NCBI GenBank assembly: GCA_047629435.1
Contig: JBLHXF010000014.1
Coordinates: forward strand, 801-64,800
From: Yoonia sp.
Lineage (GTDB): Bacteria; Pseudomonadota; Alphaproteobacteria; Rhodobacterales; Rhodobacteraceae
Direction of reading: 5' to 3'
DNA length: 64,000 nucleotides
The notes below the pieces were generated by a model. That model made no database searches. It saw only the letters and a program-made list of their open reading frames with translations, and was not told the DNA's origin. The translations under genes were made by a program, and so were the position numbers. Positions 1-64,000 of the stretch are shown here, piece by piece; positions within the stretch are counted from its first letter, which is position 1, and the number at the start of each line of letters is the position of its first letter.

Positions 1-1810
1 AATACTCGACGCCGTCTTTGGCCTCTTCTTTGGTCAAGATGTTATTGGCGCGCTTGAACCCTTGGATCAGGTTTTCACCGTCATCCGTGGCCAATGTAGC
101 CGCCAATGCCTTAGCGCGTTTGACCAACAACGTCAGATCGTCCGAGCGGTCCATCGCGATGCAAGCATCGATGATATCGTGGCGGATGCCTTGGTCTTTG
201 AGGTAAACCTTGAGGCGGTCGTGGAAGAAGGAGAGGAGGTCGACAGAAATAGTTGAATGAAGGCTAAGCTTAAGATGGGTGGGATGCATTGTTACAACCG
301 CACCCCACAGTTCATCCAATTTAGCAGAGATATCGTTATCCAAAATCAACCGAATAACACCCAACGCTGCTCGGCGCAGCGCAAACGGGTCTTTCGACCC
401 TGTTGGTTTCTCACCAATCGCCCAAAACCCTGTCAGCGTGTCAAGCTTATCTGCAAGCGCCACAGCAACAGACACGGGCGCGGTTGGCACGTCGTCTGAT
501 GGGCCAAGCGGCGAGTAATGCTCTTGGGCGGCGGCGGCGATGGCATCGGACAAGCCAGCCTTGGATGCGTACTTTCGCCCCATAAGCCCTTGAAGTTCGG
601 GGAATTCATAGACCATCTCGGACGACAGGTCGGCCTTGGCCACGCGCGCGGCCTCGGCCACTTCAGCCACATCAGCACCAACCAGCGGGGCGATTTCGGA
701 CGCCAATGCGATGATGCGGTCAATCCGGTCTTTTTGCGTGCCCAGTTTGTTGTGGAACGTCACGTTCGACAGGCTATCAAGCCACGGCTGCATGCCAGCA
801 TGCGCAATGCGCAGATCGTTTTCCCAAAAGAATTTTGCATCCGACAAACGCGCGAAAAGCACCTTTTGGTTGCCCTTTAAAATCGTCGCACCATTGTCCG
901 CCGTCACCGTATTGGCGACGGTGACAAAGCGTTCGATCTGGCCCGTCTTGGCATTGCGCACGGAAAAGAATTTCTGATGCTCTTTCATCGATGTCTGCAA
1001 AACTTCGTCTGGCAATTCATAGAACGACGGATCAATCTGGCCCAGCAAAACAACCGGCCATTCAACCAGCCCTGCGACCTCGGTCAAAAGCCCGCGATCC
1101 TCGACCACTTCCAAACCAAGCGCAAACGCCTGATTGGTCGCGTCGTTCCAGATCATATCGGCACGTTCATCCGCACGCAGCATGACGTGGGCGCGTTTCA
1201 GTTTCGCCTCGTAGTCTTCGAAATTCGTTACCAAAAATGCATCTGGGCTTAGGAAACGGTGACCGCGCGTCGTATTGCCCGAGTTAATCCCGTTGATATC
1301 AAGCGGCACGACTTCAGTACCCGCCTCGTCAGTCAGAATGCAAACGATGGAATGCAATGGGCGGACCCATTTCAATGTGCCAGTGCCCCAGCGCATGGAT
1401 TTCGGCCAAGGGAAATTGCGGACAGCCCCCTCAAGGACCTCTGCAATCACATCAGAAGCCATCCGGCCTGGTTTCTGGATCACGGCGAAATACACCTGAC
1501 CCTTTTTATCATCCCGGATTTCAAGATCGTCACGCGTGACGCCTGCGCCGCGCAAAAAGCCGTTAATCGCCTGATCAGGCGCGCCAACTTTGGGGCCTTT
1601 GCGTTCTTCGCGCACAGGTTTGCTTTCAGCCAGCAAGTCTTCCACAGACAATGTCAAACGGCGCGGCGTTGAGAACGCTGCGGCGGATTTATAGGTCAAA
1701 CCAGCCTCGACCAGCCCGTCAGTGATCAGCTTTTGCAGATCGCTCGCCGCTTTACCCTGCATACGCGCCGGAATTTCCTCGGAGAAAAGTTCAATCAGAA
1801 GATCAGGCAT
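1..1810 (-). CDS. glyS: Glycine--tRNA ligase beta subunit (3'-partial, runs off the window)
   Basis: Hand translation from ATG 1810: [72 protein letters not shown]. Frame is open to position 1. Missing from the ORF track because the stop is outside the window. Confidence 0.97.
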   Translation of the reverse strand, partial: MPDLLIELFSEEIPARMQGKAASDLQKLITDGLVEAGLTYKSAAAFSTPRRLTLSVEDLLAESKPVREERKGPKVGAPDQAINGFLRGAGVTRDDLEIRDDKKGQVYFAVIQKPGRMASDVIAEVLEGAVRNFPWPKSMRWGTGTLKWVRPLHSIVCILTDEAGTEVVPLDINGINSGNTTRGHRFLSPDAFLVTNFEDYEAKLKRAHVMLRADERADMIWNDATNQAFALGLEVVEDRGLLTEVAGLVEWPVVLLGQIDPSFYELPDEVLQTSMKEHQKFFSVRNAKTGQIERFVTVANTVTADNGATILKGNQKVLFARLSDAKFFWENDLRIAHAGMQPWLDSLSNVTFHNKLGTQKDRIDRIIALASEIAPLVGADVAEVAEAARVAKADLSSEMVYEFPELQGLMGRKYASKAGLSDAIAAAAQEHYSPLGPSDDVPTAPVSVAVALADKLDTLTGFWAIGEKPTGSKDPFALRRAALGVIRLILDNDISAKLDELWGAVVTMHPTHLKLSLHSTISVDLLSFFHDRLKVYLKDQGIRHDIIDACIAMDRSDDLTLLVKRAKALAATLATDDGENLIQGFKRANNILTKEEAKDGVEY

Positions 1811-2337
1811 TATTGCAGTCCTTGCGGTGCTGGGGGACATTCGGGCGGTACAGGGTTGCCGTCAAACACGACTTCGCCGCAGAAATTTATCTGGTGCCAC
1901 GAATACGCGCGGCCATCGGGGTACACAGCGATAACGCGATCGATCCCGTATTGGATGTTTTCTTGACCCATAAAGCCAAACGCGATGCCCGTGGATAAGT
2001 CTTCGCCAATCTGGGCTGCGTCAAAGCAGGCAAACCAACCGGGTGCGACGCGCGGCTCTGCATCGTCAGAGATCACATAGGTTTCTGTTAACAATGCTTG
2101 GGAAAGGCCCGTCGTGAAACATGACCGGAACCGCAATGGGCTGCTGTCGCTATCAATGGCCGTGAGATTTTCGAACAAAATACCCTCGGATTCACCTGTT
2201 GCGATCGAAATCATTTGCACTTCTTCAACCTGCGTCGAAACATCGTCGTAATAGGCATAGACCTGCAAATAATACAAAAGCCCACCTGCGAACAAAGCAA
2301 CCACAACCATCCCCAATATCGCTATGCGCGCAATCAT
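1810..2337 (-). CDS. Membrane-anchored conserved hypothetical protein (DUF6446-like) between glyQ and glyS
   Basis: 175 aa, N-terminal hydrophobic helix, several Cys. ATGA overlap with the glyQ stop and TAATG overlap with the glyS start. DUF name is from recall. Confidence 0.8.
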
Positions 2338-36523: not shown

Positions 36524-37420
36524 TTATGCATCAGCAAACATCCCGCGCTTGCGCGCCAATTCTTGCATCCGCACCTGCAGTTTTTCAAACGCGCGCACTT
36601 CAATCTGACGAATGCGTTCGCGGCTAACATTGTACTGCCCGCTCAAATCCTCAAGCGTGATCGTTTCCTCGGCCAAACGGCGCTGCATCAAAATGTCCTT
36701 TTCACGATCATTCAGCACATCCATCGATTCAGCCAACATCTCGCGGCGCACAGTCATCTCATCGGACGATTCATAGTCTTGGGCCGTGTTTACGCTTTCG
36801 TCTTCAAGCCAATCCTGCCACTGCGTGGCGCTATCACCGTCAGACCCGACCATCGCATTCAGCGACGCATCCCCGCCAGACAAACGGCGATTCATCGACA
36901 CGACTTCTTTTTCGGTCACGCCAAGGTCGGTCGCAATCCGTGTCACATTTTCTGGACGCAAATCGCCCTCTTCCAATGCGCCAATCCGATTTTTGGCTTT
37001 GCGCAGGTTGAAAAACAACTTCTTTTGAGCAGATGTTGTGCCAAGCTTGACCATCGACCAAGACCGCAGAACATATTCCTGAATTGACGCACGGATCCAC
37101 CACATGGCATAGGTCGCCAGACGGAAACCCTTTTCAGGATCAAACTTTTTAACAGCTTGCATCAGGCCCACATTGGCCTCTGAAATCACTTCAGCCTGCG
37201 GCAAACCGTACCCACGGTACCCCATGGCGATTTTGGCCGCGAGACGCAGGTGCGACGTGACCATCTGGTGCGCAGCATCCGTGTCTTCATGGTCGACCCA
37301 GCGTTTGGCCAACATATATTCCTGTTCCGGCTCAAGCATCGGAAATTTCCGAATGTCCTGCATATAGCGGTTCAGACCTTGCTCCGGTGACGGTGCAGGT
37401 AGATTTTTTAAATTACTCAT
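36524..37420 (-). CDS. rpoH: RNA polymerase sigma-32 factor
   Basis: HLRLAAKIAMGYRGYGLP, GFRLATYAMWWIRA, RpoH box [19 protein letters not shown]. Confidence 0.97.
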   Translation of the reverse strand: MSNLKNLPAPSPEQGLNRYMQDIRKFPMLEPEQEYMLAKRWVDHEDTDAAHQMVTSHLRLAAKIAMGYRGYGLPQAEVISEANVGLMQAVKKFDPEKGFRLATYAMWWIRASIQEYVLRSWSMVKLGTTSAQKKLFFNLRKAKNRIGALEEGDLRPENVTRIATDLGVTEKEVVSMNRRLSGGDASLNAMVGSDGDSATQWQDWLEDESVNTAQDYESSDEMTVRREMLAESMDVLNDREKDILMQRRLAEETITLEDLSGQYNVSRERIRQIEVRAFEKLQVRMQELARKRGMFADA

Positions 37421-37459
37421 GTCTCTTATCCCCTCCCAATGTTTAAGGTCTTAACATGG

Positions 37460-37488
37460 ATATGGGCCTTACTGTGATCCGTTTCAAG
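37460..37488 (-). promoter_or_regulatory. Putative sigma32-type promoter upstream of rpoH (CTTGAA-N15-GCCCATAT)
   Basis: Close to the CTTGAA-N13-15-CCCCATNT consensus, 40 nt upstream of the rpoH ATG. Confidence 0.6.
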
Positions 37489-37582
37489 ACCACTTAGGCA
37501 ATAACCATGAATCAAATATGAATAAGACAGTCGGCATTTTGAAGAGCTATGTCAGTGCGCTCACGCACATGGGACGTTTGTT

Positions 37583-50597: not shown

Positions 50598-52144
50598 CAG
50601 TTGGGACTCACTGGAATGTGCCAATCGCGCCCACGCGCAGTATCTACATATTCCGGCCAAGCAAAATTGATGGGCGGCTCATAATCACAAAGTGGTGGAA
50701 TATCAGTAGTTTGCTTACGCTTCTCGAACTCACGCATCGCGGAATTGCGAGCTTTGTCATCTTCTAAAATACGCAACGCTGACACGGCCAAAACCTGTGC
50801 TGCGGCCTGTACCATCGGATCAATCGTCGACGGAATTCCGCCTAATGCGTTCATCGCCCACGCGGGGTATGGGCCACCACGCATCGCAGGGCGCGCCATA
50901 TAGAACCGCGCAGTGGGCGCATGCCATGTCATATCAGTGTAATCATCCGACGTGGAATTAAGCTGCGAAGGCGGCAAACCACGACGCAAAATTGCCTCTG
51001 CCTCCTGCGGGTCAATCAACGCAGCACAGGCATCCAATAGCGGATCATCCATCGGGTCGACGCTGCAAGCCAATTGCACCTTACGCATCACATCTCGCGC
51101 GACTTCATCCCATTGCGGGGCACCTACTTGCTGAATGCCATCCCAAACAACCCGCGCCATCGCGTGGTTCGCCAGGCCCGGGCGCGATTTACACACCCAA
51201 TGTCGGGTCACCGTGCATCCGGTCATCGCAGCAATCGCATCTGCTTGGCGGTCAAGTGCGGCCGTGACCTGTTCGGCCATCTGCACTGTCGGGACACGCA
51301 TCATATATTGAATTTCAGCCAAGCCCGCAGGCAGATTATCCGCCGTCGCTTGTCCTGCGCTGATGATCGTCTCAGAGATCGACCAGCCACCTTGATGTGG
51401 CAACATCGTATCACGCAGAAACCGACCCGCCTGATACATCTGGATCAGCGCGTCATTGGCACCGGGTGCCCGGACATCAGAATGGCTTTGCGGGATTGGG
51501 GCGCCGTCGGTTGCACCCCATGTTTGCGGATCATCACAGCGAAAGCGGTAAATCATTGAATAGGCAGCCCCACAGTGGGTGTCCCAGCGCACGGTATTAC
51601 ACATCGGCAGCATATAAAATGGATGGAACGACAGCATCGCAGCAAGCCCATCATAATAGCCCTTTGCTGCATGGATCGGCTTGGACCCTCGAACTTTTTC
51701 GGCAGGCTCGCCAGTGAACCGCAAGCCGCCCCTGATCCCATGATGTTCCATCGCAGCCTTGGTCGCGAGCAATCCACCAAGCCCAGCGATCCCCAACGCT
51801 GAATGCGGATCAGTATGGCCTGCCGCCTGAAAGCCTAATTCATCACGCGGTGCGCGAATGGGCACAGCGGCCTGACAATTCGCAGGAACAGCATCATATT
51901 CGGCGTACATGCCAACCGTAGGACCAGCCCCATTGGACCATTCAGCGCAAAACGCAGTTGGCATACCACCAGAACCTTCTTCAACGGTGAACCCAGCCTT
52001 GCGCAACTCGGTCACATACCAAGCCGCAGACCGATATTCCCGCCAAGCGGGTTCGGCATAGTCAAAAATGGTCGCGCAGCCCCGCGACAAATAGTCGGCG
52101 TTGGCTACAATATGGGCACGGGCGGTGTGGATGGCATCGGTCAT
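50597..52144 (-). CDS. M20 family amidohydrolase, AbgB-like
   Basis: AEYDA, GHTDPH, GEPAEK, FHP, STSDD. Confidence 0.82.
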   Translation of the reverse strand: MTDAIHTARAHIVANADYLSRGCATIFDYAEPAWREYRSAAWYVTELRKAGFTVEEGSGGMPTAFCAEWSNGAGPTVGMYAEYDAVPANCQAAVPIRAPRDELGFQAAGHTDPHSALGIAGLGGLLATKAAMEHHGIRGGLRFTGEPAEKVRGSKPIHAAKGYYDGLAAMLSFHPFYMLPMCNTVRWDTHCGAAYSMIYRFRCDDPQTWGATDGAPIPQSHSDVRAPGANDALIQMYQAGRFLRDTMLPHQGGWSISETIISAGQATADNLPAGLAEIQYMMRVPTVQMAEQVTAALDRQADAIAAMTGCTVTRHWVCKSRPGLANHAMARVVWDGIQQVGAPQWDEVARDVMRKVQLACSVDPMDDPLLDACAALIDPQEAEAILRRGLPPSQLNSTSDDYTDMTWHAPTARFYMARPAMRGGPYPAWAMNALGGIPSTIDPMVQAAAQVLAVSALRILEDDKARNSAMREFEKRKQTTDIPPLCDYEPPINFAWPEYVDTARGRDWHIPVSPN

Positions 52145-52175
52145 GCTGCCATTGGGCGCAATCACGACCCCCAAG

Positions 52176-52574
52176 TCAATCCGACATATGCGCAATCACG
52201 CGACGGGTGTGCGGGGCATCGCGATGTTCGAAAAGATACATCCCTTGCCACGTTCCCAGCTGTATCCGCCCATTCAGCACAGGAATAGACAAATGTGTCG
52301 GCATCATCGCAGCCTTAATATGGGCGGGCATATCGTCAGGTCCTTCATAAGTATGGGTCAAATACGCCATCGACGGATCAGTTGTCGGTGGGACCAAGCG
52401 CGCAAAGAAATTCTGTAAATCCGCTTGCACCTCTGGGTCCGCATTTTCTTGGATCAACAGGCTACACGACGTGTGTTGAACAAATAGGGTCAGCAGACCC
52501 GTGCCGTGAACCTGCACCTGATCAGTAAATTCATAGAGTCCGGCGCCAGTAGTCACGATCTGGATCGTCTGCAT
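52176..52574 (-). CDS. yjbQ: YjbQ/UPF0047 family protein
   Basis: HTSCSL..ENADP, HTYEGPDDMPAHIK, LGTWQG. Confidence 0.92.
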   Translation of the reverse strand: MQTIQIVTTGAGLYEFTDQVQVHGTGLLTLFVQHTSCSLLIQENADPEVQADLQNFFARLVPPTTDPSMAYLTHTYEGPDDMPAHIKAAMMPTHLSIPVLNGRIQLGTWQGMYLFEHRDAPHTRRVIAHMSD

Positions 52575-52720
52575 CGCAACTCCCCCTACGGCAAAGCGAA
52601 CGGCCCTGCCGATCAATCTATTGTTAGGCTTTTATAATCGCAGAAGAAGGTTGGCACAAATTGGAAACCATAAACTTTGACGACCAATAATGTGTCCCTC
52701 GAAACTAACCTTGGTCGATT

Positions 52721-53230
52721 TCAATCAGGCAATTCAACCCATTCACGCGTGTTATCGACCCAAACAAACCCGAGGCTCTCTTTAATCTTCCAAATATCAT
52801 CAGCCCAAATGAACTCAATCTTCGAACGATCACAATCAAGATCCATGAAAATTTCACCATAGCGAGCGACACTCACCGCGCCAAAGTTACGGTTTGGAAC
52901 GTCCTCATAAGTCTCGTCACCCCACGGGCGCTCATACCCGCCGTGAACCGAATAGGCATAATTCCCATTCTCAAAGCTAATCTCTTCCCAAATGTCTTTC
53001 CCGAGGCCATTCCATGGGCGGTAATCAAGATCGGCAATCGAAGCTGTTAGCGCGAGTTCAGGCACCTGCCCTGCAATACCAAACCGGTAATATGCGTTGG
53101 TATCGTCGTAGCAGACATCCAACGTCTTGCTGCTATCTTCAATCTGGCATGACATGAATGTTAGTTCGGCATCAGAGCAACCCGCCACAGCAGGATTCGC
53201 AAACACGACAAAAGCAAAAAGGTATTTCAT
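52721..53230 (-). CDS. Secreted hypothetical protein
   Basis: MKYLFAFVVFANPAVAG signal, four Cys, acidic; patchy lower GC. Confidence 0.7.
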   Translation of the reverse strand: MKYLFAFVVFANPAVAGCSDAELTFMSCQIEDSSKTLDVCYDDTNAYYRFGIAGQVPELALTASIADLDYRPWNGLGKDIWEEISFENGNYAYSVHGGYERPWGDETYEDVPNRNFGAVSVARYGEIFMDLDCDRSKIEFIWADDIWKIKESLGFVWVDNTREWVELPD

Positions 53231-53310
53231 CAAAGTATTCCTCTGGAAATATGTGGATCTCGCCTGCGCGCAACCAAAACATACTCTTTCCAAAAAAAGT
53301 TGCCCAATCT

Positions 53311-53580
53311 CTATTTACGAAACAGCGTTTTGCCTTGCTCATCAATCACTTGTTTGGCTTTCGCCAAAGAGATTGCAGTCGCTTGTTCAAGATCATCGAA
53401 CGTATCCGCACGAATGACCTGTTGAATCAATATTTCACCCTCAACATCTTTTTCAATGCGGGCGGCCAAACGGTACTTTGATCCTTCTGGTACAGGAGCA
53501 ACAAAAATGCGGAAACCGTTGTAGGTTTCCGCAAGTTCTTCTGCTTTTTTGCCGCCAAATAGCCGCTTTAGCAAAGACAT
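53311..53580 (-). CDS. HlyU-family small protein (alphaproteobacterial type)
   Basis: MSLLKRLFG, Y.GFRI..P..EG..YRLA..I.K, IRAD, DEQG; 2 nt downstream of rpoD. Confidence 0.75.
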   Translation of the reverse strand: MSLLKRLFGGKKAEELAETYNGFRIFVAPVPEGSKYRLAARIEKDVEGEILIQQVIRADTFDDLEQATAISLAKAKQVIDEQGKTLFRK

Positions 53581-53582
53581 CT

Positions 53583-55562
53583 TTACTGATCCAAGAAGCT
53601 ACGCAATTTGCGCGAACGGCTTGGGTGTTTCAACTTACGCAGTGCCTTGGCTTCGATCTGGCGAATACGCTCGCGCGTCACGCTGAACTGCTGGCCCACT
53701 TCTTCGAGAGTGTGGTCGGTGTTCATGCCGATACCAAAACGCATGCGCAGCACACGTTCTTCACGCGGCGTAAGCGACGCCAGAACACGTGTCGTGGTTT
53801 CCTTCAGATTTTCCTGAATGGCAGAATCCAGCGGCAGAATCGCGTTCTTGTCTTCGATGAAGTCGCCCAGCTGGCTGTCTTCCTCGTCGCCAATTGGCGT
53901 TTCCAAGGATATAGGTTCCTTGGCAATCTTCATAACCTTGCGGACTTTTTCCAAAGGCATCTGCAGCTTTTCTGCCAATTCCTCTGGTGTCGGCTCGCGA
54001 CCAATTTCGTGCAACATCTGGCGACCCGTGCGGACCAGCTTGTTAATCGTCTCGATCATATGAACCGGAATACGGATCGTACGGGCCTGATCGGCAATAG
54101 AACGCGTGATCGCTTGACGGATCCACCACGTGGCGTAAGTCGAGAACTTATACCCACGGCGATATTCAAACTTATCCACTGCCTTCATTAGGCCAATGTT
54201 ACCTTCTTGAATAAGATCAAGGAATTGCAGGCCACGGTTCGTATATTTTTTAGCGATCGAAATAACCAAACGCAGGTTTGCTTCGACCATTTCTTTCTTG
54301 GCCTGACGGGCTTCTTTTTCGCCCTTTTGAACCTGCTGCACAATGCGGCGAAATTCTGTGATATCAACGCCGACATACTGTCCAACTTGGGCCATATCGC
54401 CGCGTAGTTCTTCGATCTTGTCCAGTGACCGCTCAATAAGCGCTTGCCAACCACGACCCGACTTCTGGCCCATTTCGCCGATCCAATTCGGATCCAACTC
54501 GCGTCCTTTATATTCGTCGATGAATTCGCGGCGGTTGATACGGGCTTGGTCAGCCAGTTTAACCATCGCGCTATCGATCGACATGATACGACGGTTGATG
54601 CCGTACAATTGGTCAATCAACGCCTCAATCCGGTTGTTATGCAGGTGAAGCGAATTCACCAAAACAACAATTTCAGACCGCAGTTTTTGATACTTCTTTT
54701 CTTCTTTTTCAGTGAACGATGAATCCTCGTTCAACGTGGCAGACATACGCGCGTCTTGCATATCAGACAGCTTACCAAACCCACGGGCGATCACCTCAAG
54801 GGTCTCCAACACGCGTGGCTTTAGTGCAGCTTCCATCGCGGCCAGCGACATGTTGGCCTGATCGTCCTCGTCGTCGTCGTCGTCCTTAGCAATTGGATTG
54901 CCGTCGGCGTCCAATTCCTGAGCAGTCTCTTTTTCAACAGCCGGGGCGCCAGCCACAATTGGCGCAACAACAGCGGCTTCGCCCTCTTCTTCAAGCTGAT
55001 CACTAAACGTGGTCTCAAGGTCGATCACGTCGCGCAGCAAAATATCTTCTGACAGCAATTCGTCGCGCCAGATCGTGATCGCTTGGAATGTCAGCGGGCT
55101 TTCGCACAGCCCAAGGATCATCGTGTTTCGGCCAGCCTCGATACGCTTGGCAATCGCAATTTCGCCCTCACGGGACAACAACTCGACGCTGCCCATCTCG
55201 CGCAGATACATGCGGACAGGGTCATCAGTGCGGTCAAGCTTTTCAGCTTCAGCACCGCCCAAGATCACTTCGCGCGATCCCGCAACAGTGGCAACATCAG
55301 TGCCGCCCTGCGGATCTTCGGATTCTTCAGATTCTTCCTGCTCGGTTACCTGAATGCCCATTTCGGACAGCATCGACATGACATCTTCGATTTGATCCGA
55401 CGACACCTGCTCTGGCGGCAGAACCGCGTTCAGCTGGTCATATGTGATGTAACCACGCTCGCGCGCGTCCGCGATCATCTTTTTGACTGCCGCTTGGGAC
55501 ATATCAAGGCTGATGTCGCCGTCCTGGTCGTCCTTGCGGTCGTCGTTGTCTTTAGCGGCCAT
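53583..55562 (-). CDS. rpoD: RNA polymerase sigma-70 factor
   Basis: [60 protein letters not shown]. Confidence 0.99.
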
Positions 55563-55582
55563 GAGCAGGTTCCTTCAAGATA

Positions 55583-55646
55583 GAATCACTCGCAAGTGAT
55601 TCGACTGATTCGGTTCGTTCGAATCAATCCCGATTCGGGGTGATTC
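55583..55646. promoter_or_regulatory. Array of six GANTC (CcrM) sites upstream of rpoD
   Basis: GAWTC at 55583, 55598, 55607, 55621, 55632 and 55642; five fit YGAKTCG on one strand. Confidence 0.75.
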
Positions 55647-55687
55647 GCAACCGTAACAGCCATTGTTTTTAAATTATGTTGCGCGCC

Positions 55688-57661
55688 CTATGACTTAGGG
55701 CCATTCTCGTCTTTGCCAAAGCCGATCCGGCCAAGTAAATCATCCAATGCGCTACGTTCGTCTTTCTTGATCAGCGCGCCGTTTTCACCCTTGTCGTATT
55801 CGGCACTATCATCATCATCTTGGCGGATTGTTGTATCCACGGACGCGGCTGCACGTGACAGTCGCCAGGTCACGCCCTCGTCCACAAGCCCCGCCATATC
55901 GTCCATCCCATCACTCAGCTCTCGCAGGTGACCGCGGCGCGACATTAATTTCCCTAATTCCTCCGTCAAAGACTGCGTTGCAATCTCCACGTTCCCTGCC
56001 TTGCGTACTGACGGGGCCAACTGCAAATGAGGACTGCGCATTAGCTTTTCAAGGGCATCCGGCCCAACATCTGCAACAACATCCGCCATCACGTCAGCGG
56101 CCAGCGCATGACGCAAGATCGCAGCCCGCAAATGGGCATGATCTGGGTCGCGGCATTCCATACGCTCAATATCTGGCTCGAACGCAGAAATCACCGCAGG
56201 TGTGTTCAGCAACGTCGCCAAAATCACCGCCTCACGCATATGATCCGCGTCCGCAGCACCCGATCCAAGCGCAGACATCTTGCTTGCTGCCATCGGCGAA
56301 ATATCCCGCTGCCAGGTTTCTTGATTGCGCGACCAAGCAGCCCGCTGACCGCGCTGTTGCGCAGGCCCCGTTTGCTTGCGGGTGCTAAATAGGTCCCAGC
56401 GCATCTGCTTGATCGCCTCGCCGTAATGACTCCGGATCGACGGGTCCGCGATCAATTTAATCTTTTCGCGCAACACTCTATCCAGCCCAGCTTTACGCTC
56501 TGGGCTATCAAACACCTTGCCATCCGTCTCGCGACGCCACAGCAATTGCACCATCGGGATGGCATTATCCAACAGCTCTTGCATCGCGGCCTTACCCTTC
56601 GATTTTAGCACATCATCAGGGTCCATACCCTCTGGCATTAACGCAAACCGCAACGATTGACCCGCCTCTAACAACGGCAGCGCAATATCAATCACCCGCA
56701 TGGCCGCACGCACACCTGCGGTATCACCATCAAGTGCGATGATCGGTTCAGGGGCTATTCGCCACATCAAACGTAACTGATCCTCGGTAATTGCTGTCCC
56801 TAACGGGGCAACAGTCGCGCCAAACCCAGACTCCGACAGCGCAATAACATCCATGTACCCCTCGGCCACAACAAGCGGGGCACCCTTCCCCGCCGCCTCA
56901 CGTGCAGGACCGTGATTGTACAAACTACGGCCCTTATCGAACAAAGGCGTTTCTGGAGAGTTAAGATACTTCGCACGCGCATTCGGATCCATCGCACGGC
57001 CACCAAGACCAACCGGTCGGCTCCGCCCATCGCGAATGGGAAAGATAATACGACCACGAAACCGGTCATAAGGGCTGCCACCACGGTCACTTTCGGCGGC
57101 CAACCCAGCCTCGATGACCAGCTTTGGATCAACGCCCTTGCCCACAAGATGGGCCATCACGCCGCCATTCGCAGGGGCAAACCCAATATCCCAACGGTCC
57201 AAACTCGTCGCATCAAACCCGCGACGGACCAAATATTCACGCGCCTCAGCGGCCATGCCAGTGTTCAACTGCATCCGGTGCCATTGCACCGCTTGCTCCA
57301 TCACGTCCGTCAGTTGGGTCCGTTTATCAGACTTCTCTTGGGCGCGCGGATCATTGGCAGGCACTGGCAATCCAGCCTCGCCAGCCAAAATCTTAACCGC
57401 CTCCATGAAATCCACATTCTCGGTTTCGCGCACAAACGTAATCGCGTCACCCTTCGCGTGACAGCCAAAGCAGTAATAAAAACCCTTACGGTCATCGACA
57501 TGGAAACTGGCAGATTTTTCCTGATGGAACGGGCACGGGGCCCAAAGGTCGCCCTTACCCTGATTGGACTTGCGCGTGTCCCATATGACTTTGCGGCCCA
57601 CAACCTGTCCTAACGACAGGCGGGTGCGTAACTCGTCTAAGAATCCGGGGGGCAAGCTCAT
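55688..57661 (-). CDS. dnaG: DNA primase
   Basis: CPFHQEKSASF..YYCFGC Zn finger, DRFRGRIIFPI, AKYLNSPET, EGYMDV, DGDTAG, DPDD. Confidence 0.98.
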   Translation of the reverse strand: MSLPPGFLDELRTRLSLGQVVGRKVIWDTRKSNQGKGDLWAPCPFHQEKSASFHVDDRKGFYYCFGCHAKGDAITFVRETENVDFMEAVKILAGEAGLPVPANDPRAQEKSDKRTQLTDVMEQAVQWHRMQLNTGMAAEAREYLVRRGFDATSLDRWDIGFAPANGGVMAHLVGKGVDPKLVIEAGLAAESDRGGSPYDRFRGRIIFPIRDGRSRPVGLGGRAMDPNARAKYLNSPETPLFDKGRSLYNHGPAREAAGKGAPLVVAEGYMDVIALSESGFGATVAPLGTAITEDQLRLMWRIAPEPIIALDGDTAGVRAAMRVIDIALPLLEAGQSLRFALMPEGMDPDDVLKSKGKAAMQELLDNAIPMVQLLWRRETDGKVFDSPERKAGLDRVLREKIKLIADPSIRSHYGEAIKQMRWDLFSTRKQTGPAQQRGQRAAWSRNQETWQRDISPMAASKMSALGSGAADADHMREAVILATLLNTPAVISAFEPDIERMECRDPDHAHLRAAILRHALAADVMADVVADVGPDALEKLMRSPHLQLAPSVRKAGNVEIATQSLTEELGKLMSRRGHLRELSDGMDDMAGLVDEGVTWRLSRAAASVDTTIRQDDDDSAEYDKGENGALIKKDERSALDDLLGRIGFGKDENGPKS

Positions 57662-57711
57662 GCGCACATTATCTGCCGATCCATCACCAGAGTCGACCCA
57701 ACAACATCTAA

Positions 57712-58221
57712 CTAACCGCGCGCAGCAATCGCCTCAGCAGCAGTTGTCAGATCGTGCACCAACGTCCGCGCCATCGACCGCATAACCATCACCTCAAATC
57801 GATCATCGGCAACACAGGTAATATGCGCCGTCATATGCCCGATAAGCGTGCGCATCACAGCCCCCGCAGGCACCCACAAATCAACCGGCACCAGCCGCGC
57901 CAACACGGCCTGCGCATCTCCTGACACCGCGACCACAGCCCAAGCATCACTTTGGTCGGTCACAGCGGCAGGCATATCCGGCACGGTATCCGCAAATACG
58001 ATGACCTGATCCAACCCAAACCAAACAGCATGCGGTAACAGTTGACCAACGTCGGGCCAAACAATGTCGACCTTCTTTAACGCGGCCATACAAGCCTTCT
58101 CTGACCCAACAAACGGCGACACAGACCACATCGGTCCTTTATCCACCTCGGCCAAGGTCACAGACCCAATCGTGACAGGCAACAGCCCAGCGCAGGCACT
58201 CATTGCTTTCAACTCAACCAC
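57712..58221 (-). CDS. soxG: Sarcosine oxidase subunit gamma
   Basis: DQSDAW, LARLVPVDL, RT, VMRSMA; GTG start overlapping the soxA stop. Confidence 0.85.
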   Translation of the reverse strand: MVELKAMSACAGLLPVTIGSVTLAEVDKGPMWSVSPFVGSEKACMAALKKVDIVWPDVGQLLPHAVWFGLDQVIVFADTVPDMPAAVTDQSDAWAVVAVSGDAQAVLARLVPVDLWVPAGAVMRTLIGHMTAHITCVADDRFEVMVMRSMARTLVHDLTTAAEAIAARG

Positions 58222-61066
58222 GAACACGACCTCCCTCAGGGTCAAAGAACACAGGATCACAGACTTCAACTTGCGCATCCAATCCACGCATATGGTCCAC
58301 CATGCGGATCACCTCGCCGTGCCGCGCGCGACCCCGCTCCAAGAACCCCAACGCCAGCATCGACCCAATCGTCGGCGAGAATCCAACAGACGTGATATAC
58401 CCCTGCCCGTTCACGCGCACTGGGTCCGCACCGCTCTCAAACAAATGCGCGCCAGCGCTCAATTGCTTCACCGCACCAACAGGTTTTAATCCAACCAATT
58501 GGGCGCGGTCAGAATCAAGCAACCCAATGCGGCGCGACATCGCCTGACCCACACAATCCTTCTTCATGTTGACCATCCGGTCCATACCAATATCAAACGC
58601 AGTCACACGGCCATGGATTTCGGCGTGGGTGATGAAACCCTTTTCAATGCGCAGCACATTCAGCGCCTCCATCCCATAAGGACCACCGCCCTGCGCTGCT
58701 GCACGATCAACCAAAGTATCATAAAGCGCAGCCCCAAACCGCGCAGGAACTGCCAACTCAAACGCCATCTCACCTGAAAACGAAATACGGAATACGCGGG
58801 CCTTCACTTCACCAATCGTGACATCAGCACAGCCCATAAACGGCAGCTCATCAATCCCTTGGTCCAACACCCCGTTTAACAATTCCCGAGACGTCGGCCC
58901 AGCAACCCCAAACTGCGCCCACTGCTCAGTCACGCTGATCACACGGGCATCCAACTCGGGGCGCAAAACCTGCAACACAAACTCCAAATGCCGCATGACC
59001 AAACCGGCAGCCGCCGTCGTCGTGGTCATGACATAGTGGTTTTCACCCAACCGCGCAGTAGTACCGTCATCCAACACATGCCCATCTTCGCGCAGCATCA
59101 AACCATAGCGCGCGCGCCCGACCTTCAGCGTCGAAAACGTATTGGCATAAACGAAATCAAGCAGTGCCGCGGCATGAGGCCCCTGAATATCAATCTTACC
59201 CAGCGTGGACACGTCAACAACACCAACGGCCTCGCGAACCATGTTGACCTCGCGGTCACACGACTGACGCCAGTTCTTTTCGCCCTCAACGGGGAAATAA
59301 CTCGGTCGGTACCACAACCCCGCCTCGATCATCGGAGCCTTCATGCCAACCGATGCGTCATGCGACGTCGTATATCGCTGCGGCGCAAACCCCATGCCAG
59401 CGGCGCCGGCCCCCATCGCCGCAATCGGCACGGGCACAAACGGCGGACGAAACGTGGTTGTCCCTGTCTCTGGTATCCCGCGCCCCGTGACATCGGCCAA
59501 AATAGCCAAAGCCACTACATTCGACGACTTCCCTTGATCAGGGGCCATGCCTTGGGTCGTATACCGCTTCATATGCTCGACTGATTGGAAATTCTCACGT
59601 GCAGCCAGCTCAATGTCTTTCACATGCACATCGTTCTGATAGTCGATCCACTTACGCCCCTTCCCAGCAACCGACCACACAGGCGTGATAACATATGGGG
59701 TGTCATCCGCATCCGGCAACGCAACAGGTTTGGCCTTCAATCCAAGGTTCTTAACGACAGCCTCCGCAATCTGCGTAGCATCAGCCAAACAACCCAACGT
59801 GTCAAAAACACCGTGGCACGCACCAGCAGTCACCAAATTAGGCACAGCCCCCGCACTTGGCACAAACGATGCAATCTTCTCGTCCCAAATCGGGCGGCCA
59901 TTCATATGGCAGGTCAGATGCACAGTCGGGTTCCAACCACCAGTGACAGCCAAACAGTCCACATTGATCTGTTCCACCACGCCGTCCCGGTCCACAGTAA
60001 TTGACGTCAAACCATGGCGGCCCTTGGTGCCAATCACGCGATCCCCAGCAACGGCATCGATCTGGGCCACCACGTCTATCCCAGCATCTGTCAAATCCCG
60101 CGTAGTCCGCGCCACATCCCCCGTATTGCCAAACACAGCAACACGCGCGCCAGTGGCAACACCCCAACGGTTAACATATGCACGCACAGCCCCCGCCATC
60201 ATCACACCCGGTCGGTCATTGTTCGCAAACGCAATCCCGCGCTCCAACGCACCAGCACACAGCACGGTCCGTTTGGCGACAATGCGCCAGAAACACGCCT
60301 TCAGCCCCGCGCGATCAACACGTTCAAACGCGCCAAACGTCCCTTGATCATAAACACCCGTCACCGCCGTACGGGTCATCACACGAACATTGGGCATGGC
60401 AAGCAACTTGGCCTCAGCTGCGGCGACCCACTCCATCGCAGGCCGACCATCAATATCCTCAACCTCAGACATCAACCGCCCGCCCAGCGCACTATCTTCC
60501 TCAGCCAAAATAACATCAGCCCCCGCATCGGCAGCAACCATTGCAGCCATCAACCCAGCAGGGCCAGCACCAATCACTAACACATCACAAAACGCAAAAG
60601 CCTTCTCATACGTCTCCGGATCAGCCTTACCGCTCAGGCCACCAAGCCCAGCAGCACGGCGAATAATCGGCTCGTAAACCTTTTCCCAAAACGCCTTTGG
60701 CCACATGAACGTTTTATAATAGAACCCAGCTCCCAAGAACGGCGACACCAGATCGTTCACAGCCATCACATCGGCCTTCAGCGACGGCCAAGCATTTTGC
60801 GAAAACGCCTCCAGTCCCTCAAAAACCTCTTGCACAGTCGCACGCACATTCGGCTCGGCAACATCGCCACAGCCAATCGTAACAAGCGCATTTGGCTCCT
60901 CAGACCCCGATCCCATCACTCCACGGGGGCGATGATACTTAAACGAACGGGCCACCATTTTCACATCATTGGCGATCAAAGCCGCAGCCAAAGTCTCCCC
61001 CTCAACGCCGCGATACGTCACCCCATCAAATGTAAACGGAACGGTCTGAACCTCGCGCAATCTCAC
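58214..61066 (-). CDS. soxA: Sarcosine oxidase subunit alpha
   Basis: FTFDG..G.TLAAAL, RSFKYHRPRG, GAGPAG, KRYTT.GM..DQGK, TTFRPP, GcvT-like DVSTLGKI. True start taken as GTG 61066 overlapping the soxD stop. Confidence 0.95.
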   Translation of the reverse strand: MRLREVQTVPFTFDGVTYRGVEGETLAAALIANDVKMVARSFKYHRPRGVMGSGSEEPNALVTIGCGDVAEPNVRATVQEVFEGLEAFSQNAWPSLKADVMAVNDLVSPFLGAGFYYKTFMWPKAFWEKVYEPIIRRAAGLGGLSGKADPETYEKAFAFCDVLVIGAGPAGLMAAMVAADAGADVILAEEDSALGGRLMSEVEDIDGRPAMEWVAAAEAKLLAMPNVRVMTRTAVTGVYDQGTFGAFERVDRAGLKACFWRIVAKRTVLCAGALERGIAFANNDRPGVMMAGAVRAYVNRWGVATGARVAVFGNTGDVARTTRDLTDAGIDVVAQIDAVAGDRVIGTKGRHGLTSITVDRDGVVEQINVDCLAVTGGWNPTVHLTCHMNGRPIWDEKIASFVPSAGAVPNLVTAGACHGVFDTLGCLADATQIAEAVVKNLGLKAKPVALPDADDTPYVITPVWSVAGKGRKWIDYQNDVHVKDIELAARENFQSVEHMKRYTTQGMAPDQGKSSNVVALAILADVTGRGIPETGTTTFRPPFVPVPIAAMGAGAAGMGFAPQRYTTSHDASVGMKAPMIEAGLWYRPSYFPVEGEKNWRQSCDREVNMVREAVGVVDVSTLGKIDIQGPHAAALLDFVYANTFSTLKVGRARYGLMLREDGHVLDDGTTARLGENHYVMTTTTAAAGLVMRHLEFVLQVLRPELDARVISVTEQWAQFGVAGPTSRELLNGVLDQGIDELPFMGCADVTIGEVKARVFRISFSGEMAFELAVPARFGAALYDTLVDRAAAQGGGPYGMEALNVLRIEKGFITHAEIHGRVTAFDIGMDRMVNMKKDCVGQAMSRRIGLLDSDRAQLVGLKPVGAVKQLSAGAHLFESGADPVRVNGQGYITSVGFSPTIGSMLALGFLERGRARHGEVIRMVDHMRGLDAQVEVCDPVFFDPEGGRVRG

Positions 61067-61326
61067 CGCGCTACCTCGCGTGCCAAAACAACATCCGACA
61101 CCACATGCGAAACAGTATCGCGGGTCACAATCAACCAAGCCCCACAACCTGCCTCGTGATGCCAAAGATCACGGGTTATGCCCGCCGGATTATCCCGCAA
61201 ATGCAAATACTCATCCCAAACGTCCAAATCCGCAGCGCGATCAGGACGGTCCAACGCAACAGCATCGCCAACATAATAAAACTCGCGGCGATCCCGCTCT
61301 CCACACACCGGACACTTAATGCGCAT
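61063..61326 (-). CDS. soxD: Sarcosine oxidase subunit delta
   Basis: CPVCGER..EF, RDNP.G, WHHEAGCGAW..RDT. Confidence 0.93.
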   Translation of the reverse strand: MRIKCPVCGERDRREFYYVGDAVALDRPDRAADLDVWDEYLHLRDNPAGITRDLWHHEAGCGAWLIVTRDTVSHVVSDVVLAREVAR

Positions 61327-61358
61327 TCACCCACCTCGCTTTTTCCAAAATACTCATC

Positions 61359-62612
61359 TTAATGCAGATTATGCTGGGCGCCCGTGCCCTCTTCATCCAT
61401 CAGGCCAATGCCATCACGGAACCTATCCAACCGAAATCCAGCCGCAGGAGCATGATGCTGACCCGTCGCCAACAAATGGGCAAACGAATATCCCGATCCC
61501 GGCACAGCCTTGAACCCGCCGTAACACCACCCGCAATCCAGATAGAGGCCTTCAATATGCGTCTTATCAATAATCGGGCTGCCATCAGGCGTCATATCCA
61601 TAATGCCGCCCCATGACCGCAACACGCGGGCCTTACCGATCATCGGCATTAAGGTCATCGCGGCCTCCATCACATGCTCTTTCATAGGCAAATTACCACG
61701 CGCAGCATAAGACGCGTAAAAATCAAGGTCGCCGCCAAACACAAGGCCACCCTTATCCGACTGACTAATATAGAAATGGCCCATACCAAAGCTGACGACA
61801 TGATCAATCACAGGCTTTAGGCCCTCGGTGACAAACGCCTGCAACACATGGCTTTCAATCGGCAACCGCATACCTGCCATGGCAGCAACCTGCCCAGACC
61901 GACCAGCAGTCACAATCGCGACCTTCTTGGCACGAATGGCACCGCGCGTGGTTTGAACGCCCTTCACAACACCCGCCTCAATATCAATCCCCGTGACTTC
62001 ACAATTTTGGATCAAGTCAACACCGCGCTGGTCGGCACCGCGCGCATAGCCCCACGCAACAGCATCATGTCGGGCAGTCCCACCGCGACGGTGCAACAAC
62101 CCGCCATAGATCGGAAATCGGCCATTTTCAAAATCCAGATACGGCAAATGCTTGCGCACACCCGCAACATCCAGCAACTCGGCATCATCACCTTGATTAA
62201 CCATGGCATTGCCGCGACGGGCAAAAGCATCGCGCTGACCATCCGAATGGAACAAATTGATCACGCCACGCTGTGACATCATCGTGTTGTAATTCAGCTC
62301 CTGCTCCATACCTTCCCACAGGTTCAGCGAGTGGGAATAAAACTCGGAATTTCCTGGCAAAAAGTAATTGGCACGCACAATCGTGGTATTCCGCCCCACG
62401 TTGCCACCGCCCAAATATCCCTTTTCCAGCACGGCGATATTTGTCATGCCATGTTCTTTCGCAAGGTAAAACGCAGTCGACAACCCGTGACCACCGCCAC
62501 CAATAATGACGATGTCATATTCATCCTTGGGATCAGGATTACGCCATTGTGGGGTCCAGCCCTTCTGGCCAAACAACCCTTCCTTTAAGACACGAAAGCC
62601 CGAAAATCCCAT
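61359..62612 (-). CDS. soxB: Sarcosine oxidase subunit beta
   Basis: GGGGHGLSTAFYL, GGGNVGRNTTIVRANY, RHDAVAWGY, GWCYGGFKA. Confidence 0.96.
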   Translation of the reverse strand: MGFSGFRVLKEGLFGQKGWTPQWRNPDPKDEYDIVIIGGGGHGLSTAFYLAKEHGMTNIAVLEKGYLGGGNVGRNTTIVRANYFLPGNSEFYSHSLNLWEGMEQELNYNTMMSQRGVINLFHSDGQRDAFARRGNAMVNQGDDAELLDVAGVRKHLPYLDFENGRFPIYGGLLHRRGGTARHDAVAWGYARGADQRGVDLIQNCEVTGIDIEAGVVKGVQTTRGAIRAKKVAIVTAGRSGQVAAMAGMRLPIESHVLQAFVTEGLKPVIDHVVSFGMGHFYISQSDKGGLVFGGDLDFYASYAARGNLPMKEHVMEAAMTLMPMIGKARVLRSWGGIMDMTPDGSPIIDKTHIEGLYLDCGWCYGGFKAVPGSGYSFAHLLATGQHHAPAAGFRLDRFRDGIGLMDEEGTGAQHNLH

Positions 62613-62747
62613 AGCCCAATCCCTCATAGCGTAACATTGACGCTATGCGGACAAACCACAGATGAAAAGCCGCGCGACCATAAAAAATGGCCCGGAACAA
62701 TCTGCTCCGCGCCACTCAAAATGTCATGCGCGCAGCGCGCATTTAGG

Positions 62748-64000
62748 TCAAAGCCCCTTAGCTTGGTAACTCATGGCAACCTTACCGATCGACACAATAT
62801 AGGCGGCAGTCCGCAAATCCTTCACATCATCGCGTGCATGCCAAACTTTACGCATCGACTGATAAGCCGACCGCATCGTGTCATCCAAACCGGACCGCAC
62901 CAGCTCCAATTCGTCAGCGCCGCGCAGGTACTTTTCTTTAAAGTCCTTTGACATCGACCAATCCGCACCCAAATAGCGGTCCAAACGCTGCAATTCGTCA
63001 ACTAACACCTGATGACGGGCTTCCTCAGCACGACGCTGCATACGGCCAAAACGGATATGGCTTAGGTTCTTGACCCATTCGAAATATGACACGGTCACAC
63101 CGCCCGCATTGGCGTACATATCGGGAATAATGACACAGCCCTTGTCGCGCAAAATATCATCGGCACCCGCAGTAACAGGGCCATTCGCAGCCTCAATAAT
63201 CAACGGGGCCTTAATGCGGTCAGCGTTCGTCAAATTGATCACAGCTTCCAACGCAGCAGGGATCAGGATGTCACATTCGGTTTCCAACAACAGGGCACCG
63301 TCAGCATGGTGGTTCGCATCCGGATAACCAGAAACGCCGCCATGTTTGGCGATCCAAGCATGTACGGCCTCAACATCCAATCCGTCTTCATTATGTAAGG
63401 CACCATCGCGTTCAATAATACCCGTGATGATTGACCCATCTTCTTCCGACAGAAACTTGGCGGCGTGATAGCCCACATTGCCAAGGCCTTGAACAATAAC
63501 GCGTTTGCCCTCCAACGTGCCCGTTAATCCAGCAGCGGCTTTATCCTCATCATACCGGAAAAACTCGCGCAAGGCGTATTGGACACCGCGACCCGTAGCC
63601 TCGGTACGGCCTTGAATACCGCCCGCATTAATCGGCTTACCAGTGACACAAGCAGCCCCATTAATATCGGTCGTATTCATGCGCTTATACTGATCGGCAA
63701 TCCATGCCATCTCACGCTCACCAGTGCCCATATCAGGGGCCGGCACGTTTTGGGCTGGGTGGATCAGGTCACGCTTGATCAGCTCATAAGCAAACCGGCG
63801 GGTAATCTGTTCGAGCTCATGGGGCTCCCACTCTGACGGATCAATGCGCAAACCGCCCTTTGACCCACCAAACGGGGCCTCAACCAATGCACATTTGAAC
63901 GTCATCAACGCAGCCAGTGCTTCGACTTCATCCTGATGCACGTTCGGGGCGAAACGAATCCCGCCTTTGACTGGCTCCATATGTTCGGAATGCACGGACC
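62748..64000 (-). CDS. gdhA: Glu/Leu/Phe/Val dehydrogenase (glutamate dehydrogenase), 5'-partial
   Basis: KGGIRF, MTFKCA..PFGGSKGG, PAPDMGT, TGKP..GG..GR.EATG, QGLGNVG, EAANGP, NAGGVTVSYFEW. Confidence 0.93.
   Translation of the reverse strand, partial: SVHSEHMEPVKGGIRFAPNVHQDEVEALAALMTFKCALVEAPFGGSKGGLRIDPSEWEPHELEQITRRFAYELIKRDLIHPAQNVPAPDMGTGEREMAWIADQYKRMNTTDINGAACVTGKPINAGGIQGRTEATGRGVQYALREFFRYDEDKAAAGLTGTLEGKRVIVQGLGNVGYHAAKFLSEEDGSIITGIIERDGALHNEDGLDVEAVHAWIAKHGGVSGYPDANHHADGALLLETECDILIPAALEAVINLTNADRIKAPLIIEAANGPVTAGADDILRDKGCVIIPDMYANAGGVTVSYFEWVKNLSHIRFGRMQRRAEEARHQVLVDELQRLDRYLGADWSMSKDFKEKYLRGADELELVRSGLDDTMRSAYQSMRKVWHARDDVKDLRTAAYIVSIGKVAMSYQAKGL

Follow-up and report, generated by a model that had tools for sequence, protein, structure and literature searches.

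In the 64,000-nucleotide (nt) stretch of the Yoonia sp. contig JBLHXF010000014.1 analysed here (the window), the primary sigma factor gene rpoD follows the DNA primase gene dnaG, and the spacer between the two genes holds a dense array of GANTC sites, the target of the methyltransferase CcrM. rpoD (53583..55562, minus strand; 659 amino acids; NF004208, 907 bits) is the gene that the array would serve, and dnaG (55688..57667, minus strand; TIGR01391) lies directly upstream of it in the same orientation. The array occupies the centre of the 125-base-pair (bp) spacer (55563-55687). Its six GANTC sites start on the plus strand at 55583, 55598, 55607, 55621, 55632 and 55642, all of them in the form GAWTC; they fall within 64 bp, at spacings of 15, 9, 14, 11 and 10 bp and 21-84 nt 5' of the rpoD ATG. 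Five of the six read YGAKTCG on one strand, four of these as TGATTCG (55597 TGATTCG, 55606 TGATTCG, 55620 CGAATCA, which is TGATTCG on the minus strand, 55631 CGATTCG, and 55641 TGATTCG), and the site at 55583 gives no match. The number, spacing and flanks of the sites had been described by an earlier inspection of the letters without database searches (the sequence-only reading), and the site positions confirm that description. YGAKTCG is the consensus of the subset of N6-methyladenine (m6A)-GANTC sites recognised by GcrA, which binds domain 2 of sigma-70 as a monomer (PMC9976885, PMC5887438).

We named the sites A, A', B, C, D and E in the direction of rpoD transcription. Site A (55642..55646, -84 from the ATG; TGATTCG on the plus strand at 55641-55647) follows, on the rpoD strand, a GGTTGC with a weak resemblance to a -35 element (TTGCGA). 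Site A' (55632..55636, -74) is a CGATTCG within the palindrome CCCGAATCGGG, site B (55621..55625, -63) is a TGATTCG on the rpoD strand and the most conserved site of all, and site C (55607..55611, -49; TGATTCG on the plus strand) is the last conserved element ahead of a variable leader. A, B and C together form a three-site core of 41 bp (55607..55647, minus strand) that reads CGAATC-N15-TGATTCG-N7-CGAATC on the rpoD strand. Site D (55598..55602, -40; TGATTCG on the plus strand) and site E (55583..55587, -25; TAGAATCAC) are, like A', accessory, and each forms one arm of a perfect 8-bp inverted repeat with a 4-nt gap (55583..55602), GAATCACT-N4-AGTGATTC at 55583-55590 and 55595-55602. The array is flanked downstream by a Shine-Dalgarno-like GAAGGAA (55570..55576, minus strand), which the sequence itself shows at 8-14 nt ahead of the rpoD ATG, and upstream of site A by an A/T-rich tract, ATAATTTAAAAACAA (55663..55677, minus strand). 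A scan of the minus strand between dnaG and rpoD found no terminator-like site.

GANTC is scarce in the window as a whole: 59 sites were observed against 222.8 +/- 13 expected from dinucleotide-preserving shuffles. With an observed/expected ratio of 0.26, it is the most depleted of the 16 interrupted pentamer palindromes of the form XYNY'X', 14 of which give ratios of 0.73 to 1.16. When 59 sites were placed at random in 64 kb in 200,000 trials, five fell within 64 bp in 4 trials and six in none, and even at an undepleted GANTC rate the Poisson expectation for at least six in 64 bp is about 1e-4 per window. GANTC density is 0.76 per kb in open reading frames (ORFs) versus 3.68 per kb in intergenic DNA, or 2.05 per kb when the array is left out of the intergenic count, and only 2 of the 53 GANTC sites outside the array take the form YGAKTCG. 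Intergenic enrichment together with coding scarcity is the pattern related for CcrM-bearing Alphaproteobacteria by PMC7987155, which cites Gonzalez 2014 for it. The general intergenic enrichment is also the one point in favour of a chance or compositional cluster without function; the simulation, the Poisson estimate and the conservation described below refute such an origin, and we give it practically no weight.

We retrieved 80 rpoD loci from one-genome-per-species contigs, selected by RpoD protein alone. Of these, 23 were classed as Rhodobacterales on the record title, an RpoD identity of 70% or more, or both. All 23 Rhodobacterales species carried 3-7 GANTC sites within 300 nt upstream of rpoD, a result that answers the question of conservation in Rhodobacteraceae rpoD leaders posed by the sequence-only reading. 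In these species GANTC density was 14.6 per kb upstream of rpoD versus 1.12 per kb in the remainder of the loci, YGAKTCG accounted for 86% of the upstream sites versus 17% of those elsewhere, and the central base was A or T in 98 of the 101 upstream sites. Neither the Caulobacterales nor the Sphingomonadales loci had a GANTC within 300 nt upstream of rpoD, and over 600 nt they showed at most three and no comparable array.

Many of the Rhodobacterales loci share the same core on the rpoD strand, namely A (cGAATC), 21 bp, B ((gc)tatTGATTCg), 14 bp, and C (cGAATC). Among 17 loci aligned on site B (16 fetched loci plus the window), the A-to-B spacing was 21-22 bp in 15, and the B-to-C spacing came to 14 bp exactly in seven loci and to some 11-16 bp in several more; the exact 21/14 arrangement was present in 7 of 24 loci, the window included. 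Cultured carriers of the A-B-C module include Loktanella fryxellensis DSM 16213, Ruegeria lacuscaerulensis and Pelagimonas phthalicica. In the Paracoccus/Rhodobacter branch, the boxes mostly face one way at 13-bp spacing. The conserved sequence reaches past GANTC to CGAATCAcc, and further elements are common to the relatives: an A-rich tract aAAGAAAAc, a block GGGTAAACGGGTGKSC just upstream of site A, and, immediately ahead of site B, a GCTAT-T similar to the CTAT core found in alphaproteobacterial -10 elements. The window represents a second variant, with GGTTGC before A and GGGAT-T before B in place of the -10-like GCTAT-T of most relatives; its A/T-rich tract is the counterpart of aAAGAAAAc and might be regarded as a candidate UP-like element. 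Between site C and the ATG lie 26 to about 190 nt, depending on the locus, and the core thus behaves as a promoter module rather than as a leader or translation signal.

Comparison with close relatives separated the core from the accessory sites. The nearest species genome by RpoD is that of Loktanella fryxellensis (91% identity), in which the promoter region (L001 2815-3000) has the three core sites only and is followed by a GC-rich C-to-ATG leader of about 146 nt, versus 44 nt in the window; the extra length might hold a further regulatory element. The identical RpoD protein was seen solely on Joint Genome Institute (JGI) metagenome contigs, and near-identical DNA occurs in metagenomes of ice, sediment and seawater, which makes the organism an uncultured member of Rhodobacterales. 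In relatives whose RpoD is 89-97% identical, the spacers between the sites have diverged and the sites have been kept. In one of them (L149) the central base of A' has flipped with GANTC retained and site D has been lost, two others (L145 and L107) keep site D, and other close relatives have one extra site in a different place. By these comparisons, the conserved unit is the three-site core A-21-B-14-C, and the other three sites of the window are accessory copies gained and lost from lineage to lineage.

The inverted repeat formed by sites E and D, the two sites nearest the ATG, fares differently. It is present and perfect as the sequence-only reading had described it, and with its 8-bp stem and 4-nt loop lying 21-40 nt before the ATG it could be thought to form a hairpin in the 5' untranslated region that controls translation or stability of the rpoD mRNA. 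The predicted fold is no better than that of shuffled sequences (z = -0.25; 77 of 200 shuffles fold as well), and a search of Rfam gave no relevant match, the sole hit being a sub-threshold CD-box snoRNA (21 bits versus a gathering threshold of 39) at 55770-55819, inside dnaG. The repeat is also absent from most relatives, one arm being gone already in a relative with 97% identical RpoD, and the conserved sites lie upstream of it at a variable distance from the ATG. We therefore rejected an RNA element, for which we see hardly any room, and regard the repeat as a lineage-specific trait.

Specificity for rpoD was examined by scanning public metagenome contigs with CGAATC-N15-TGATTCG-N7-CGAATC, a pattern that fixes 19 bases. 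It matched 102 stretches in all, and of the 80 loci returned, 75 were at rpoD: 74 lie 26-69 nt upstream on the same strand, and in one the rpoD start is cut by the end of the locus. The remaining five comprised three chance matches in or near unrelated ORFs, one GATTC/GAGTC-rich eukaryote-like element and one phage-like contig. In 61 distinct promoters carrying the module, the number of sites was three in 24, four in 27, five in 8 and six in 2, which places the window at the upper end; an extra site 11-13 bp upstream of B, in either orientation, was found in 8 of the 61. Likewise, 120 of the 130 arrays of at least three boxes in 1.4 Mb of fetched DNA stand beside rpoD, and six of the other ten are rpoD arrays at locus ends. 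Taken with the conservation in Rhodobacterales, these data make it highly probable that the rpoD array is a functional cis-regulatory promoter module. The sequence-only reading had proposed a control element for rpoD, and a real, non-random and conserved cis element with the motif preferred by GcrA does exist; what has changed is that its unit is the three-site core and that it is a promoter module rather than part of the leader. The 41-bp core also serves as a compact DNA signature for Rhodobacterales rpoD loci in metagenomes, with a specificity of about 94%.

The fixed spacing and orientation of A, B and C, with conservation out to CGAATCAcc, is typical of oligomeric regulators, and GcrA, by contrast, is a monomer that usually acts at one box. 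This raises the alternative that another sequence-specific regulator binds CGAATCA half-sites in the geometry A-21-B-14-C with alternating orientation, and that the match to GANTC is incidental. Against it, the motif is exactly the published GcrA motif, and the accessory sites vary in number, position and orientation, including the one whose central base has flipped with GANTC intact. The different layout in the Paracoccus/Rhodobacter branch is a further difficulty for a fixed geometry, and the spacer contains no match to the consensus sequences of CtrA (TTAA-N7-TTAA), alphaproteobacterial LexA (GTTC-N7-GTTC), FNR or DnaA. CtrA has been reported to be bound at the rpoD promoter in Brucella. 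Overall, we consider a different regulator an improbable explanation of the array.

The position of the array relative to the transcription start was approached through the promoter elements. A consensus scan of the minus strand from 55400 to 56000 detected no canonical sigma-70 promoter (-35 TTGACA and a TATAAT-like -10, 16-18 bp apart), as would be expected of an activator-dependent promoter. By eye, only weak candidates were visible, TTGCGA at site A and GATTGA (TATTGA in relatives) running before and into site B; several manual registrations of -35 and -10 were tried and none was convincing. A sigma-32 promoter at rpoD is unlikely, the array being unlike the organism's own rpoH promoter, CTTGAAAC-N14-CCCATATCC. 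As a working model of low confidence, the rpoD start is placed near 55617, about 8 nt downstream of the start of site B, because the T-A of (gc)TAT-T was taken as -12/-11. In this tentative register, A would be centred around -27, A' around -17, B around -6, C around +9 and D around +18. GcrA-activated promoters have their boxes shortly before or after the start, and the reported positions are -20+/-1, -30+/-2 and +5 to +30 (PMC9976885); most of the modelled positions fit these, whereas that of B does not. In metatranscriptomes of a related estuarine roseobacter (L152), contigs break off in dnaG at 4747 and start again 5 nt past site C, at 4856, and the gap is empty in run X34. This boundary is compatible with the start model and gives it a weak hint, contig ends being poor proxies for RNA ends. 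For the window organism, four metatranscriptomes held no contigs over 55420-56400, and the sequence was found in metagenome DNA runs only.

Of the two partners in GcrA-dependent activation, sigma-70 is encoded in the window. Its RpoD finds its best PDB match in the sigma-70 of C. crescentus as present in the GcrA activation complex (7ye1_F, E = 6e-252). When the two were aligned, 15 of the 18 listed GcrA-contact residues (PMC5887438) were identical, including all eight that are essential by mutagenesis (L128, L129, G133, A136, A143, K139, R140 and R462), and the changes were D146N, T403Q and K298N. E. coli sigma-70 differs at the equivalents of A136 and A143, two of the eight essential residues. 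The window sigma-70 thus retains the surface on which GcrA docks, formed by region 1.2 and the coiled coil of the non-conserved region in domain 2. On the DNA side, the GcrA DNA-binding domain was crystallised on TGATTCG, with R42 contacting the flanking G/C (PMC5887438). As for CcrM and GcrA themselves, both have been described as conserved in Alphaproteobacteria including Rhodobacterales, and PacBio sequencing has detected GANTC m6A in every sequenced genome of Sulfitobacter as well as in Dinoroseobacter shibae (PMC9025767, PMC5786225). It is this literature on relatives, together with the depletion and intergenic enrichment of GANTC in the window, that speaks for the presence of both proteins in the window lineage.

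Based on these observations, we propose that the 64-bp array is the rpoD promoter core of a Loktanella-like bacterium, built of putative CcrM-methylated GcrA boxes on which GcrA would read the methylated DNA; we assign this reading a probability of roughly 0.55. According to the model, CcrM would methylate the adenines of the six GANTC sites, and GcrA, bound to domain 2 of sigma-70 within RNA polymerase, would recognise the methylated TGATTCG boxes around -35, -10 and +1, raising occupancy and opening of the rpoD promoter. The A, B and C boxes would constitute the conserved core of this response and the other three sites accessory copies. Transcription of rpoD would then follow the level of GcrA and the methylation state of the promoter, and since sigma-70 is the obligatory partner of GcrA, a positive loop on the GcrA-sigma-70 holoenzyme may result. 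In this model, methylation of the sites, their binding by GcrA, the sign of the effect and the position of the start are all putative. On such a reading, the array would be a CcrM/GcrA-type promoter that is unusual in its number of boxes, its fixed architecture and its target gene.

Several observations weigh against the GcrA model. A six-frame motif search found neither ccrM nor gcrA in the window or in any of the 186 loci. GcrA-activated promoters in Caulobacter mostly have one box, not 3-7 (PMC9976885), the main text of the Caulobacter GcrA regulon paper (Haakonsen et al. 2015) makes no mention of rpoD, and the GANTC sites of Caulobacterales are scattered within 600 nt of rpoD in another arrangement. 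GcrA regulons are heavily rewired even among close relatives (PMC7987155). In the start model, site B at about -6 occupies a position at which no GcrA box has been reported, and the -10 and -35 assignments are poor matches. Moreover, we found no methylation, binding or expression data on the rpoD array locus for any organism, and the dense array at the gcrA promoter of A. tumefaciens acts via methylation without GcrA (PMC11514494). Two further searches bear on the presence of the two proteins: Pfam analysis of 66 window ORFs gave no GcrA or methyltransferase family among the 25 families listed of 104, and C. crescentus GcrA (PDB 7ye1_G) compared with 5.8 billion proteins gave at least 120 matches, those listed being all Caulobacter-like and none tied to the window organism.

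The A. tumefaciens precedent leads to a GcrA-independent version, in which the methylation state of GANTC would itself alter binding of RNA polymerase-sigma or promoter melting; full methylation would damp the rpoD promoter, and a burst of rpoD transcription would follow when the replication fork leaves it hemi-methylated, in line with the proposal made for the gcrA promoter in A. tumefaciens. That promoter has 6 GANTC within 250 bp, and its full methylation represses it even in a GANTC-methylating E. coli (PMC11514494), which makes it the nearest dense-array precedent, and it fits the replication timing suggested in the sequence-only reading. Site B, moreover, lies over the presumed -10/discriminator region, in which a methylated adenine could influence melting, and in Rhizobiaceae and Mesorhizobium a GANTC lies exactly at the expected -10, 17 nt after TTGAC. 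However, CcrM needs GANTC alone, and yet in 86% of the Rhodobacterales sites GANTC is extended to the GcrA motif, with conserved C/G at the flanks and W in the centre, which methylation by itself leaves unexplained. We consider this version unlikely, if worth keeping in view, and retain the GcrA-box promoter as the preferred reading.

The proposed promoter shares several features with known systems and departs from each of them. As in the GcrA promoters of Caulobacter crescentus (PcsM, with a box at -20, and PmipZ, with boxes at +4 and +12), GANTC takes the YGAKTCG form, including TGATTCG as crystallised, the boxes lie near the core promoter on either side of the start (here by the start model), and the docking surface on sigma-70 is conserved. 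On the other hand, the rpoD array has 3-7 boxes with a fixed three-box core where Caulobacter usually has one, one of its boxes overlaps the presumed -10/discriminator region, and its target is rpoD itself, at which Caulobacterales have no comparable GANTC arrangement. With the A. tumefaciens gcrA promoter (PG) it has in common a dense excess of GANTC at the promoter of a central regulator, interpreted at PG as a replication-linked switch between full and hemi-methylation (PMC11514494). The rpoD array is about four times denser (6 in 64 bp versus 6 in 250 bp), has GcrA-specific flanks, belongs to another gene and is conserved across an order. At PG, methylation is repressive.

Two systems of E. 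coli offer more distant parallels. The rpsU-dnaG-rpoD macromolecular-synthesis operon contains internal rpoD promoters inside dnaG, including a sigma-32 promoter. In the window, too, dnaG and rpoD are neighbours in the same orientation, rpoD has a regulatory region of its own at the end of dnaG, and no obvious terminator separates the genes; dnaG is likewise upstream of rpoD in nearly all related loci. The window differs in that the upstream gene is soxG-like and not rpsU. Methylation is not known to play a role at the E. coli operon. The second parallel is formed by the Dam GATC clusters at E. coli oriC and the dnaA promoter, which SeqA sequesters when they are hemi-methylated. Here too, methylation sites cluster at the promoter of a master growth gene and could provide a read-out of replication, an analogy only, as the methyltransferase, the site and the reader are all different, and Alphaproteobacteria, to our knowledge, lack SeqA.

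The link between rpoD and GANTC extends beyond Rhodobacteraceae: it is order-wide in Rhodobacterales, and it is not restricted to that order, several Rhizobiales families having their own version. When 600 nt upstream of rpoD were examined, TTGAC-N17-GGAATCA(CC) was found 270-380 nt before the ATG at 10 loci of Rhizobium, Shinella, Martelella and Mesorhizobium (L024, L031, L036, L041, L044, L047, L049, L052, L053 and L063), an arrangement that puts GANTC at the expected -10 position, 17 nt after the canonical TTGAC. Mesorhizobium and Daeguia (L043) have 4-5 GANTC within 120 bp upstream of rpoD. These distal promoters (Rhizobium, Shinella, Martelella, Mesorhizobium and Daeguia) thus share GANTC/GcrA-type boxes with the Rhodobacterales module, and differ from it in having a canonical -35, a distance of 270-380 nt to the ATG, another arrangement of boxes and often only one or two sites. 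Because several Rhizobiales have a version of their own, the association of rpoD with GANTC may predate Rhodobacterales, the fixed three-box form apparently being confined to that order. The same Rhizobiales rpoD loci also have conserved TTAA-rich motifs (gtggttaatc...ttaa) farther downstream.

Since the three-site core recurs before rpoD across Rhodobacterales, there is probably a link in this order between DNA methylation and the capacity for housekeeping transcription. Going further, and more tentatively, the order (and some Rhizobiales, with another layout) could possess a dedicated epigenetic control of the housekeeping sigma factor, in which a multi-box array read by the GcrA-sigma-70 holoenzyme ties rpoD to the methylation and replication state of its own promoter, and a self-reinforcing loop couples transcription capacity to the replication cycle; we offer this broader proposal as a possibility about which we have considerable doubts. 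No published description of a GANTC/GcrA-box array at rpoD was found in literature of incomplete coverage, and the same applies to the Rhizobiales version. If the proposal is true, then in marine roseobacters, Rhodobacter and Paracoccus the supply of the primary sigma factor would depend on the CcrM/GcrA cell-cycle system. In most studies rpoD serves as a reference gene assumed to be constitutive, and it is a widely used normaliser in quantitative polymerase chain reaction (qPCR), including in Alphaproteobacteria. A feedback arm would also be added to the GcrA-sigma-70 partnership, and the array would provide the strongest natural multi-box GcrA promoter for mechanistic work, known GcrA promoters having one or two boxes.

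Two of the pattern matches away from rpoD deserve description. A phage-like contig (Ga0193742_1045936, 66% GC; L151 491-629) contains seven boxes (TGATTCG/CGAATCA) in 139 bp with neither rpoD nor dnaG nearby. The neighbouring ORF of 297 amino acids (929-1822, minus strand) resembles, in motifs recognised by eye, the C-terminal part of a family A (phage-type) DNA polymerase, and a phage or prophage may be using the same boxes. The other contig (Ga0307476_10083638, 47% GC; L097 449-889) has dense tandem GATTC/GAGTC/GAATC repeats, with 14 GANTC per kb over the contig, upstream of a proline/glutamine-rich ORF resembling a retroelement gag; it is probably eukaryotic and a chance match to the pattern.

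Within the window, two more GATTC sites lie 9 bp apart at 55321-55334, inside rpoD, neither of them YGAKTCG. They sit in the codons for an acidic E-E-S-E-E-S repeat in region 1.1 and are probably a by-product of GAA-TC(N) codon pairs. CCNGG is nearly as depleted in the window as GANTC, with 78 sites observed versus 265 expected (ratio 0.29), which points to a further methylation or restriction system in the lineage, with CCNGG or CCWGG as its target. A second sigma factor gene, rpoH (sigma-32; NF005143, 410 bits), is located at 36527-37420 on the minus strand, and the textbook sigma-32-type promoter cited above lies in the stretch upstream of it (37440-37510), about 45-75 nt before its start. 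This promoter suggests autoregulation of rpoH. One GANTC lies just upstream of rpoH, at 37509, and three more lie within the gene.

Downstream of rpoD, an ORF of 89 amino acids (53314-53580, minus strand) begins 3 nt past the rpoD stop and is assigned to Pfam HlyU (PF10115) in metagenome gene calls; it recurs on all four contigs with the identical RpoD, so that co-transcription with rpoD is probable. GC skew on the plus strand is negative across the whole window, which indicates that rpoD, on the minus strand, is co-oriented with replication. Within 52001-64000, the skew is unusually strong (-0.18 to -0.24) across dnaG and the sarcosine-oxidase genes upstream of it (soxA-family, 58214-61165; soxG-like, 57715-58287).

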